64,000 bases of DNA from Escherichia coli (GTDB lineage: Bacteria > Pseudomonadota > Gammaproteobacteria > Enterobacterales > Enterobacteriaceae): the NCBI RefSeq assembly GCF_030384885.1, contig NZ_CP128613.1. One strand, written 5' to 3'. Shown piece by piece: positions 3,001-6,000 of this stretch. A program made the position numbers. Position 1 is the stretch's first letter; each line of letters starts with the position of its first letter.

Positions 3001-6000
3001 ACAAAGCTCAGCAGGAAGAGATCACTACTATGGCCGATCAATCTTCTGCGGAACTGAGCAGTAATAACGAACAGGGGCAGAGTGTTCCGTTAGATACGTC
3101 GACAACCACAGACCCGACTACGACGTCCACGCCGCCAGCGTCTGTGGATACTACCGCAACTAACACGCAAACACCTGCCATAACTTCGCCAGCACCAGCT
3201 GTTGATTCACAACAGAATGCAGTTGTTTCACCTTCGCAGGCAAATGTTGATACCGCTGCGACCCCGGCACCAACGGCAACAACAACGCCAGATGGTGCTG
3301 CGCCGTTGCCAACCGATCAGGCTGGCGTGACCACGCCAGCGGCTGATCCGAATGCGTTGGTGATGAACTTTACTGCCGATTGCTGGCTGGAAGTCACTGA
3401 CGCTACCGGTAAAAAACTGTTTAGCGGTATGCAGCGTAAAGACGGTAATTTGAACTTAACCGGCCAGGCTCCGTACAAACTGAAAATTGGTGCGCCAGCC
3501 GCAGTACAGATCCAGTATCAAGGGAAACCTGTCGATCTGAGTCGTTTTATCAGAACTAACCAGGTTGCGCGTCTGACCCTCAATGCCGAACAATCAGCGG
3601 CGCAGTAACAGACGGGTAACGCGGGAGATTTTTCATGCATAACCAGGCTCCAATTCAACGTAGAAAATCAACACGTATTTACGTTGGGAATGTGCCGATT
3701 GGCGATGGTGCCCCCATCGCCGTACAGTCCATGACCAATACGCGTACGACAGACGTCGAAGCTACGGTCAATCAAATTAAGGCGCTGGAACGTGTTGGCG
3801 CTGATATCGTCCGTGTCTCCGTACCGACGATGGACGCGGCAGAAGCGTTCAAACTCATCAAACAGCAGGTTAACGTACCGCTGGTGGCTGATATCCACTT
3901 TGACTATCGCATTGCGCTGAAAGTAGCGGAATACGGGGTCGATTGTTTGCGTATTAACCCTGGCAATATCGGTAATGAAGAGCGTATTCGCATGGTGGTT
4001 GACTGCGCGCGCGATAAAAACATTCCGATCCGTATTGGCGTTAACGCTGGATCGCTGGAAAAAGATCTGCAAGAAAAGTATGGCGAACCGACGCCGCAGG
4101 CATTGCTGGAATCTGCCATGCGCCATGTTGATCATCTTGATCGTCTGAACTTCGAACAGTTCAAAGTCAGCGTCAAAGCGTCTGATGTCTTCCTCGCTGT
4201 AGAGTCTTATCGTCTGCTGGCAAAACAGATCGATCAACCGCTGCATCTTGGGATCACCGAAGCGGGCGGCGCACGTAGTGGGGCAGTAAAATCTGCCATT
4301 GGTTTAGGCCTGCTGCTGTCTGAAGGCATCGGCGACACGCTGCGCGTATCGCTGGCGGCCGATCCGGTCGAAGAGATCAAAGTCGGTTTCGATATTTTGA
4401 AATCGCTGCGTATCCGTTCGCGCGGGATCAACTTCATCGCCTGCCCGACCTGTTCGCGTCAGGAGTTTGACGTTATCGGTACGGTTAACGCCCTGGAGCA
4501 ACGCCTGGAAGATATCATCACCCCGATGGACGTTTCGATTATCGGCTGCGTGGTGAATGGACCAGGTGAGGCGCTGGTTTCTACACTCGGCGTCACCGGC
4601 GGCAACAAGAAAAGCGGCCTCTATGAAGATGGCGTGCGCAAAGACCGTCTGGACAACAACGATATGATCGACCAGTTGGAAGCGCGCATTCGTGCGAAAG
4701 CCAGCCAACTGGATGAAGCGCGTCGAATTGACGTTCAGCAGGTTGAAAAATAATAACGTGATGGGAAGCGCCTCGCTTCCCGTGTATGATTGAACCCGCA
4801 TGGCTCCCGAAATATTGAGGGGCGCGTTGAGGGTTCATTTTTATATTCAGAAAGAGAATAAACGTGGCAAAAAACATTCAAGCCATTCGCGGCATGAACG
4901 ATTACCTGCCTGGCGAAACGGCCATCTGGCAGCGCATTGAAGGCACACTGAAAAACGTGCTCGGCAGCTACGGTTACAGTGAAATCCGCTTGCCGATTGT
5001 AGAGCAGACCCCGCTATTCAAACGTGCGATTGGTGAAGTCACCGACGTGGTTGAAAAAGAGATGTACACCTTTGAGGATCGCAATGGCGACAGCCTGACT
5101 CTGCGCCCTGAAGGGACGGCGGGCTGTGTACGCGCCGGCATCGAGCATGGTCTTCTGTACAATCAGGAACAGCGTCTGTGGTATATCGGGCCGATGTTCC
5201 GTCACGAGCGTCCGCAGAAAGGGCGTTATCGTCAGTTCCACCAGTTGGGTTGCGAAGTTTTCGGTCTACAAGGTCCTGATATCGACGCTGAACTGATTAT
5301 GCTCACCGCCCGCTGGTGGCGTGCGCTGGGTATCTCTGAACACGTAACTCTTGAGCTGAACTCTATCGGTTCGCTGGAAGCACGCGCCAATTATCGCGAT
5401 GCGCTGGTTGCATTCCTTGAGCAGCATAAAGAAAAGCTGGACGAAGACTGCAAACGCCGCATGTACACTAACCCGCTGCGCGTGCTGGATTCCAAAAATC
5501 CGGAAGTGCAGGCCCTTCTCAACGACGCCCCAGCATTAGGTGACTATCTTGACGAGGAATCTCGTGAGCACTTTGCTGGTCTGTGCAAACTGCTGGAGAG
5601 CGCGGGTATCGCTTACACCGTAAACCAGCGTCTGGTGCGTGGTCTGGACTACTATAACCGTACTGTTTTTGAGTGGGTGACTAACAGCCTCGGTTCCCAG
5701 GGCACCGTGTGCGCAGGCGGTCGTTATGACGGTCTGGTGGAACAACTGGGTGGTCGTGCAACACCGGCAGTCGGTTTCGCGATGGGCCTCGAACGTCTTG
5801 TATTGTTAGTTCAGGCCGTTAATCCGGAATTTAAAGCCGATCCTGTTGTCGATATATATCTGGTGGCTTCAGGTGCTGACACACAATCTGCGGCTATGGC
5901 ATTAGCAGAGCGTCTGCGTGATGAATTACCGGGCGTGAAACTGATGACCAACCACGGCGGCGGCAACTTTAAGAAGCAGTTTGCCCGTGCTGATAAATGG

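Follow-up and report, generated by a model that had tools for sequence, protein, structure and literature searches.

The sroE locus between ispG and hisS is probably a composite junction, in which one stretch of DNA serves as both a transcription terminator and a promoter. The element lies in a 64,000-nt stretch of Escherichia coli DNA (hereafter the window), and the features that bear on it are collected in Table 1. We propose that the ispG-derived transcript would fold hairpin 1 just past the stop codon and that hairpin 2, with its UUUUU, would act as an intrinsic terminator and give the SroE 3′ end. A nuclease-resistant piece of ~92 nt, reaching from the AU-rich stop-codon region to the terminator, would then accumulate as SroE, a 3′-UTR-derived fragment whose 5′ end would be made by processing. 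At the DNA level, TATGAT would be the -10 element of a sigma-70 promoter for hisS with its start at G4798, and the GC-rich discriminator of this promoter, TGAACCC, would also form the upstream (5′) arm of the terminator stem. A hisS mRNA without this arm would not form the terminator; it would carry a 66-nt leader and extend on into hisS. In this way hisS would be shielded from transcription coming from ispG and driven by a separate promoter of its own, which appears to be ppGpp-repressed.

Table 1. Coordinates in the window of the genes, signals and RNA structures at the ispG-hisS junction.
Feature	Position	Strand	Basis or remark
ispG CDS (372 aa)	3635..4753	+	ORF list; RefSeq annotation (E. 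coli record, 100% identity); NCBIfam NF001540, 527.6 bits
ispG stop codon TAA	4751-4753	+	
Second in-frame TAA	4754-4756	+	
SroE RNA, 92 nt	4753..4844	+	Rfam RF00371 cmscan; K-12 ncRNA b4761 annotation
Hairpin 1, GGGAAGCG-CCT-CGCTTCCC	4763..4781	+	perfect 8-bp stem, 3-nt loop
Putative weak -35-like TGGGAA (3/6 vs TTGACA)	4762..4767	+	predicted by promoter-scoring script; 17 bp upstream of the -10, in the hairpin 1 5′ arm
-10 hexamer TATGAT (5/6 vs TATAAT)	4785..4790	+	in inter-hairpin linker TGTATGAT; invariant in 22 Enterobacteriaceae
Hairpin 2	4791..4837	+	outer stem TGAACCC (4791-4797) / GGGTTCA (4831-4837), GC-rich variable inner helix
hisS primary transcription start, G	4798	+	= K-12 2638663 (NC_000913.2); = Salmonella SL1344 2653927
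hisS 5′ leader, 66 nt	4798..4863	+	inner helix of hairpin 2, unpaired 3′ arm, U-run, AAGAGAA
U-tract TTTTT	4838-4842	+	directly abuts the hairpin 2 stem; 21 nt before the hisS GTG
SroE annotated 3′ end	4844	+	7 nt past the hairpin 2 stem
Shine-Dalgarno-like conserved region AAGAGAA	4852-4858	+	AGAGAA-N-AAC-GTG conserved in alignment
hisS CDS (424 aa, GTG start)	4864..6138	+	ORF list; RefSeq; NCBIfam TIGR00442, 523 bits

Identity and structure of the SroE element

The NCBIfam matches of ispG and hisS are both equivalog-level, and the spacer between the two genes (4754-4863) is exactly 110 bp, the length given in an earlier sequence-only reading of this DNA. That reading had also proposed that the spacer is SroE, and the RF00371 (sroE) covariance model confirmed it with a match that spans all 92 model positions (1-92) and scores 110.4 bits, where the gathering score is 51 (E = 1.2e-26). 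The element sits between ispG (gcpE) and hisS on the strand of both, and the layout in K-12 is identical. The K-12 sroE (b4761) is collinear with the window element and begins on the final nucleotide of the ispG stop codon, which fits an RNA derived from the ispG 3′-UTR, as had been suggested. The window element is the same as the known SroE, an ordinary identification that was already catalogued. SroE of K-12 was reportedly discovered in the 2003 RNomics screen of Vogel and colleagues, and it is the K-12 literature and annotation that describe a discrete transcript of ~90 nt.

The window and K-12 versions are 97% identical, and the three substitutions between them are confined to the apical portion of hairpin 2 (GAAACATTGAGGGAAGCG in K-12, GAAATATTGAGGGGCGCG in the window). 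This variant occurs at ≥99% identity in only 18 of 5425 E. coli genomes, and the apical region of SroE varies even inside E. coli. Among 60 loci scanned, the Rfam sroE model gave 19 matches, every one in the Enterobacteriaceae sensu stricto; in the Yersiniaceae, Erwiniaceae, Pectobacteriaceae, Morganellaceae and Vibrionaceae loci there was none even at E ≤ 1, and a sub-threshold homology in other families was rejected on this ground.

The 92-nt RNA is predicted to fold at -40 kcal/mol (z = -4.99, with 0/200 shuffles as good), and the 111-nt spacer also folds better than expected (z = -4.52). The MFE and centroid folds agree with the Rfam sroE consensus structure line, that is, two hairpins followed by a U-run. 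The perfect 8-bp stem described from the sequence is present, although its placement "immediately" after the ispG stop was slightly loose, since hairpin 1 begins 10 nt past the stop codon; in the MFE fold it extends to 4757-4788. The second GC-rich structure, described as ending in a T-run before the hisS GTG, was found as well and corresponds to hairpin 2, which has a folding energy of -21.6 kcal/mol and, in Escherichia, spans 47 nt and has an interior that is branched and variable. In the alignment of 22 Enterobacteriaceae, 97.4% of the cells in the stems are paired. The hairpin 1 stem is nearly invariant, with one GC-to-UA double change, and the covariation signal is weak (two pairs changed on both sides) because the stems hardly vary. 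Hairpin 1 is labelled "REP" in one source, and we rejected it as a repeated element since it occurs once in the window and once in each E. coli genome. The minus strand also gives a stable fold (z = -3.9), which is expected for palindromes; a minus-strand function was rejected, as this strand has neither a U-run nor a gene context.

The hisS promoter and the probable terminator hairpin

The linker between the two hairpins, TGTATGAT, is unchanged in 22/22 aligned Enterobacteriaceae, and its TATGAT lies where a sigma-70 -10 element should be relative to a start mapped in the published tables of two species. In the 5′-triphosphate table of Kim 2012, a K-12 start is listed at 2638663(-) with six reads, and the accompanying string from -50 to +1 matches window positions 4748-4798 exactly. 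The dRNA-seq of Salmonella SL1344 (Ramachandran 2012) lists a primary hisS start (P1415) with a 66-nt leader and a motif labelled "Sigma 70 (-10)", and its string ends at the same ...TATGATTGAACCCG. P1415 had one read in the wild type versus 14 in the ppGpp0 strain. Read counts at the hisS start are low in both organisms (six in E. coli, one vs 14 in Salmonella). The Cappable-seq supplement gave no match, and our consensus promoter scan did not call the hisS promoter.

The invariant TATGAT thus appears to be the -10 box of the hisS promoter, and the linker may look seed-like for reasons other than an RNA function. This promoter was overlooked in the earlier call of SroE, and it changes the most probable identity of the conserved linker. 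The SroE region was found to be required in TraDIS screens of two Salmonella serovars, where it lies upstream of the essential hisS (Barquist et al. 2013); that it scores as essential in transposon screens can be explained by the overlap with the hisS promoter.

The mapped start is the first base past the 5′ arm of hairpin 2, 8 nt after TATGAT, and so the main hisS transcript is predicted to be unable to form the terminator. In a transcript beginning at 4798, only an inner helix of -9.6 kcal/mol is left, ending 8 nt before the U-run, and the leader folds no better than its shuffles (z = -0.33). We infer that this arrangement was selected because it lets hisS transcripts escape termination. Two further starts assigned to hisS, at -377 and -431, lie inside ispG and imply some read-through of the terminator.

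Hairpin 2 has the anatomy of an intrinsic terminator, with a GC-containing stem (TGAACCC/GGGTTCA) that is immediately followed by TTTTT. It departs from the compact hairpin of canonical terminators, as its interior is a structured region of 33 nt and only five U follow the stem. A simple terminator scan did not call it, because the scan rule permits loops of only 3-8 nt; in the Enterobacter orthologue, where hairpin 2 has shrunk to a compact canonical terminator, the same scan detected it. Per-sequence folds showed that in 22/23 species the segment between TATGAT and the U-run forms one hairpin with the same outer stem, while its interior differs completely among species. The stem abuts the U-run in every Enterobacteriaceae species examined. 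As to the 3′ end, sroE as annotated in K-12 stops 7 nt past the stem, and the Term-seq tables of Adams 2021 call no end at the SroE terminator, though they do call ends inside hisS. The suggestion that the spacer may act as a terminator is favoured by the anatomy and by the compact Enterobacter version and is not matched by the Term-seq calls; in the proposed reading, termination at hairpin 2 would be efficient in vivo. In summary, hairpin 2 resembles known intrinsic terminators in its G-C-closed stem, its direct U-run and the position of the annotated SroE 3′ end, and differs from them in being long and branched in Escherichia, with a transcription start just past the 5′ arm.

The 5′-triphosphate tables list no start at the annotated 5′ end of SroE, and the 5′-monophosphate method does list a 5′ end for sroE (Kim 2012), a pattern consistent with a 5′ end made by processing. 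The legend of Table S2 in that paper would put the sroE start "upstream", which contradicts the coordinates given in the same paper. A candidate SroE promoter picked out by eye in the 3′ end of ispG (TTGACG-N15-AATAAT) was rejected, since no 5′-triphosphate start is reported at the SroE 5′ end and its spacing is off.

CpxQ and SroC are processed, 3′-UTR-derived type II sRNAs with validated targets and seeds. SroE is like them in that its 5′ end coincides with the upstream gene's stop codon, where no 5′-triphosphate start is reported, and in having the mRNA's own terminator as its 3′ end. Unlike them, it lacks validated targets beyond one weak in vitro interaction, and its conserved unpaired stretch coincides with the -10 box.

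Alternative explanations for SroE

SroE could instead be a trans-acting, Hfq-associated base-pairing sRNA, with the linker GUGUAUGAUU or another accessible region as its seed, targets such as ligB, and the promoter overlap as a secondary matter. Its layout is indeed sRNA-like (a 5′ hairpin, a single-stranded linker that is invariant, and a terminator with a U-tail), it is listed among the Hfq-bound sRNAs of nitrogen-starved E. coli, and the INTERFACE study found weak in vitro binding to the ligB mRNA; the Hfq listing and the ligB binding mean that SroE may not be a mere by-product. However, nine of the ten predicted SroE targets failed to bind in that same study, ligB being the sole positive, and published work found no biofilm, motility or fimbriae phenotype upon SroE overexpression. 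Its published abundance was unchanged across nutrient conditions, where annotation counts cannot separate SroE, the ispG 3′-UTR and the hisS leader. The U-tail has just five U residues, the apical region is variable even within E. coli, and a -10 box, with its mapped start 8 nt downstream, fully accounts for the one unpaired stretch that is invariant. We consider such a trans-acting role unlikely.

A cis-regulatory role, in which SroE would be a hisS leader or attenuator that senses histidine or tRNA-His by switching hairpin 2 between terminator and antiterminator, was published as a T-box-like idea together with the TraDIS requirement (Barquist et al. 2013). It draws on the constant position of SroE directly upstream of hisS and on the terminator-like hairpin, both of which recall the T-boxes of Gram-positive aminoacyl-tRNA synthetase genes (hisS T-boxes occur in Firmicutes, including Bacillus). 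SroE differs from these leaders in that it has no T-box match and no conserved specifier or antiterminator, and in that the start of the main hisS transcript lies within the hairpin, past the 5′ arm that the terminator needs. A permissive Rfam scan of 4600-5000 (E ≤ 10) returned sroE and, at chance level, a DUF3085 match, with no T-box or other cis-regulatory family, and a T-box or riboswitch-like leader was rejected on this basis. In K-12, GGGAAGCG is repeated in hairpins 1 and 2, making an alternative pairing possible, but the repeat is absent from the window lineage (which has GGGGCGCG), Citrobacter, Kluyvera and Enterobacter, and masking the hairpin 1 arm did not displace the terminator from the MFE fold in either K-12 or the window; a translation-coupled antiterminator was hence rejected. 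A His-rich leader peptide (an ATG ORF of 46 aa at 4800-4940 in E. coli, with six His) was also rejected, because its ATG is found in only 5/23 Enterobacteriaceae loci. Hairpin 2 has a non-conserved interior and so offers no plausible pocket for a ligand or a tRNA. A T-box-like leader is thus not supported, and a sensing leader of any such kind seems highly improbable. We give the least credence of all to a reading in which the hairpins are 3′-end stabilisers, or decay barriers, of the ispG mRNA, with no meaningful termination at hairpin 2, ispG and hisS mainly co-transcribed, and SroE a decay intermediate of the read-through mRNA. The missing Term-seq call at the SroE site and the ispG-internal starts assigned to hisS agree with it, as does the short, hairpin-free spacing of the two genes in the Vibrionaceae (described below), which makes co-transcription look ancestral. 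Against it stand the abutment of stem and U-run throughout the Enterobacteriaceae examined, with a minimal textbook terminator in Enterobacter, the annotated SroE 3′ end just past the stem, and an independent promoter kept exactly where it is needed if upstream transcription stops.

The ispG-hisS junction across the Enterobacterales

The composite junction that we favour may extend beyond the reach of the sroE model. Outside the Enterobacteriaceae the comparison was made with per-sequence folds, as the MAFFT alignment did not register the 5′ arms. In the Enterobacteriaceae, TATGAT lies just 5′ of hairpin 2; in Pantoea and Tatumella, TATGAT lies inside an equivalent hairpin with a U-run; and in the Yersiniaceae, Pectobacteriaceae and Hafniaceae, it is a consensus promoter, TTGAAN-N18-TATAAT, that is found inside such a hairpin with a U-run. 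In the Vibrionaceae, the gap between ispG and hisS is 17-50 nt and holds no hairpins. It may be, with about equal weight for and against, that SroE is the RNA footprint of an order-wide promoter-inside-terminator junction rather than an sRNA gene of its own. In each family of the Enterobacterales, the hisS start would then lie within or just after the ispG terminator hairpin, with one arm doubling as the discriminator and the supposed "seed" being the -10 box.

For ~20 years SroE has figured among the listed E. coli sRNAs with no assigned function, and it is routinely counted in RNA-seq, Hfq-binding and target-prediction studies. Since it overlaps the hisS promoter and shares its 3′ half with the hisS leader, counts assigned to "sroE" mix reads from three transcripts, namely the ispG 3′-UTR, SroE and the hisS 5′ leader. 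A promoter nested with a terminator in this way is a tidy case of two signals on the same bases and could be a natural insulator design. If the order-wide arrangement is true, it would represent a compact and repeatedly re-engineered uncoupling of two adjacent housekeeping genes.

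SroE in the ispG-hisS spacer

The sequence-only reading had proposed SroE in a structured 110-bp spacer, a length that the positions of the ispG stop and the hisS GTG bear out. An Rfam scan over the whole window, the covariance check that this reading had suggested, matched sroE (RF00371) at full length (110.4 bits, gathering score 51, E = 1.2e-26). The ncRNA sroE (b4761) of K-12 MG1655 is collinear, its first base being the final one of the ispG stop codon, and the window differs from it by three substitutions, all apical in hairpin 2. The SroE element of the window is real, correctly named, and already known and annotated in K-12. 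sroE is systematically unannotated in most records; in the PGAP-annotated E. coli records (L001, L083-L085), the ispG-hisS interval carries no sroE feature, whereas K-12 has b4761. A second Rfam match in the window besides sroE was naRNA4 (RF02564, the REP-derived nucleoid-associated ncRNA 4; 89 bits, gathering score 59.5).

The gene order is rodZ-ispG-hisS-yfgM-bamB, according to the annotation of the E. coli 2013C-4282 RefSeq record (100% identical over 801 bp), and both flanking proteins, the ispG and hisS products, were confirmed by NCBIfam equivalog models. The spacer is present in single copy in 5425/5426 complete E. coli genomes, and the window's variant is rare, with at least 99% identity in just 18 genomes of this set. 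The lineage of window 4400-5200 is uncommon within E. coli: only 15 of 5425 genomes reach at least 99% over 801 bp, most are 95-99% identical and 54 are 80-90% identical.

Both structures described from the sequence were found: hairpin 1, GGGAAGCG-CCT-CGCTTCCC, and hairpin 2, TGAACCC...GGGTTCA, followed by TTTTT. The folding energy of the 92-nt RNA is -40 kcal/mol (z = -4.99), and 0/200 shuffles folded as well. Hairpin 2 was not called by the simple terminator rule in the window scan, since this rule accepts loops of 3-8 nt only; the annotated SroE 3′ end lies 7 nt past its stem. Within E. coli, the hairpin 2 apex, one pair of the stem (G-C to G-U, changed in the 3′ arm) and the length of the U-run are polymorphic, and no polymorphism was found in hairpin 1 or the linker between the hairpins. 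K-12 (L002) carries the octamer GGGAAGCG twice, in the hairpin 1 5′ arm and on the 3′ side of hairpin 2, where the second copy adjoins a tandem TTGAGGG repeat; this repetition permits alternative base-pairing to CGCUUCCC. In the window lineage, GGGGCGCG replaces the second octamer. In silico, the terminator fold still beats the alternative pairing.

Positions of features (window coordinates unless another sequence is named)
Feature	Position	Strand	Remark
ispG stop TAA	4751-4753	+	second in-frame TAA right after
SroE (RF00371)	4753-4844	+	
Spacer	4754-4863		
Hairpin 1	4763-4781		
Octamer, first position	4763-4770		K-12 equivalent in L002
-10 box TATGAT	4785-4790		in linker
Hairpin 2	4791-4837		
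46-aa ORF	4800-4940	+	ATG start
Octamer, second position	4817-4824		K-12 equivalent in L002
hisS start GTG	4864	+	start codon
naRNA4	55582-55658	-	
Start within ispG	about 4487		-377, Kim 2012
Start within ispG	about 4433		-431, Mendoza-Vargas 2009
Term-seq 3′ end in hisS	K-12 NC_000913.3 2640434	-	about window 5005
Term-seq 3′ end in hisS	K-12 NC_000913.3 2640283	-	about window 5156
ERIC-like insertion	L007 2315-2500		
ERIC-like insertion	L055 2260-2500		
ERIC-like insertion	L049 2255-2500		
ERIC-like insertion	L077 2089-2500		

A hisS start site inside the element

In the invariant linker, TATGAT looks like a -10 box, which predicts a start near 4797, and two published 5′-triphosphate data sets agree with this prediction. 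The TSS table of Kim et al. 2012 (PMC3415461) places a K-12 start at 2638663(-), 45 nt inside sroE (6 reads), and its -50..+1 string exactly matches window 4748-4798; the legend of Table S2 in that paper gives the sroE start as 'upstream', contradicting its own coordinate and sequence. In Salmonella SL1344, Ramachandran et al. 2012 (PMC3293720, supplementary file 2) report P1415 as the primary hisS start, with a 66-nt leader, the motif label 'Sigma 70 (-10)' and a string ending in TATGATTGAACCCG, as at the E. coli start; it had 1 read in the wild type versus 14 in the ppGpp0 strain. The window leader is likewise 66 nt (4864 - 4798).

The hisS start is the G directly 3′ of TGAACCC, so that the 5′ arm of hairpin 2 also serves as a GC-rich discriminator. 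The -35 element, TGGGAA within hairpin 1, is poor (3/6). A transcript from 4798 retains only the inner helix (-9.6 kcal/mol), ending 8 nt before the U-run, with a structure no better than shuffles (z = -0.33), and is therefore unable to use the terminator. For the annotated SroE 5′ end, Table S2 of Kim 2012 (PMC3415461) records no 5′-triphosphate start and a positive result by the 5′-monophosphate method, which fits processing. An ORF of 46 aa with 6 His codons begins 2 nt past the hisS transcription start and runs across the hisS start codon in another frame; it is probably fortuitous, since its ATG is confined to Escherichia and Citrobacter (5/23 loci).

Conservation in Enterobacteriaceae and other families

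ispG lies directly upstream of hisS in each of 80 loci that cover the range from Escherichia to Vibrio with a single locus per species, and every spacer was extracted. Of the 60 loci scanned, 19 matched sroE, each of them from Enterobacteriaceae sensu stricto, with no match from other families even at E <= 1. An alignment of 22 Enterobacteriaceae spacers has four nearly invariant blocks: the hairpin 1 stem, the linker TGTATGAT, the hairpin 2 outer stem with the T-run, and the AAGAGAA-N-AAC-GTG region. The hairpin 2 interior has completely different sequences and lengths; Enterobacter lacks it, and the remainder, AACCCATTCTTTGGGTTTTTTTT, is called a canonical terminator by the scan. The stretch that starts right after TATGAT and extends to the T-run folds into a single hairpin with the same closing outer stem in 22/23 species, the one exception carrying an ERIC-like insertion. 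Covariation is formally weak because the aligned stems hardly vary (97.4% of cells paired, only two pairs altered on both sides). ERIC-like MITE insertions, identified by eye via ERIC primer-like sequences, occur in the spacers of several species: in the hairpin 1 loop of Pseudocitrobacter, within hairpin 2 of a Klebsiella sp., in Yersinia thracica, and in Photorhabdus caribbeanensis, where the insertion splits a TATAAT box that is regenerated at the junction. Loci with such insertions were missed by the Rfam sroE model.

A near-consensus TTGAAN-N18-TATAAT lies 31-38 nt before the hisS GTG in Yersiniaceae, Pectobacteriaceae, Hafniaceae, Morganellaceae and Budviciaceae. In Rahnella, Serratia, Hafnia, Edwardsiella, Brenneria, Pectobacterium and Dickeya, it is inside a long hairpin whose 3′ arm (AATCGGGTTYA) starts inside the -10 box and precedes a U-run; in Pantoea and Tatumella, TATGAT is within AACCUGU...ACAGGUUUUUUU. 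The predicted hisS starts would thus fall in or after the hairpin 3′ arm, suggesting that the terminator-promoter logic of E. coli recurs in three forms, with other placement. In Morganellaceae, hairpin 1 with a U-run looks like an ispG terminator, with the predicted promoter downstream. The ispG-hisS gap of Vibrionaceae is 17-50 nt, with neither signal. Rahnella and Yersinia (L023, L026, L027, L033) combine the predicted internal TATAAT promoter with another -10-like hexamer, TATATT, immediately upstream of the arm of hairpin 2, in a context (TATATTGAACCCG) resembling E. coli TATGATTGAACCCG; such a tandem-promoter arrangement may stand midway between the two architectures.

Terminator, promoter and competing explanations

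We consider it probable that the sroE locus is a terminator-promoter junction. Transcripts of ispG would first fold into hairpin 1 and would end at hairpin 2 with its U-run, SroE being the stable piece from the AU-rich stop-codon region to the terminator. hisS would be transcribed from its own promoter, apparently ppGpp-repressed, and, as its start lies inside the terminator hairpin, its transcripts would escape termination. Such a junction would account for the invariance of the linker, with its embedded hisS promoter, and for the free evolution of the hairpin 2 apex. The start-site read counts are low, and in the Adams 2021 Term-seq tables the SroE terminator has no called 3′ end, while ends inside hisS are called; both count against the junction. 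Those ends are strong, lie 141 nt and about 292 nt into the hisS gene, and could reflect premature termination or processing. Further starts assigned to hisS lie within ispG; their transcripts would need to cross the SroE terminator, implying some read-through, which likewise counts against the junction.

That SroE is a true trans-acting sRNA seems rather unlikely; the supporting data are weak. It is among the Hfq-associated sRNAs of nitrogen-starved cells (PMC12539622); it was still called uncharacterised in 2018, when ligB alone of ten predicted targets was bound, weakly, in vitro (PMC6172242), cells overexpressing it showed no biofilm or motility phenotype (PMC4606813), and its level is constant across nutrient conditions (PMC12266141). 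A T-box-like hisS leader was proposed by Barquist et al. 2013, who found the region to be required in TraDIS in two Salmonella serovars (PMC3632133), a requirement that the junction would also explain. We regard such a leader, or an attenuator, as very improbable: no T-box-like or attenuator leader was matched by Rfam, the main hisS start bypasses the terminator, the K-12 alternative pairing is neither conserved nor thermodynamically competitive, and the His-rich overlapping ORF is restricted to two genera. About as improbable are hairpins acting purely as a decay barrier without termination, given that the stem strictly adjoins the U-run and that the Enterobacter terminators are minimal. What the reading of a terminator-promoter junction adds is an overlap of SroE with both the promoter and the leader of hisS, which affects the interpretation of 'SroE' signals in omics data.
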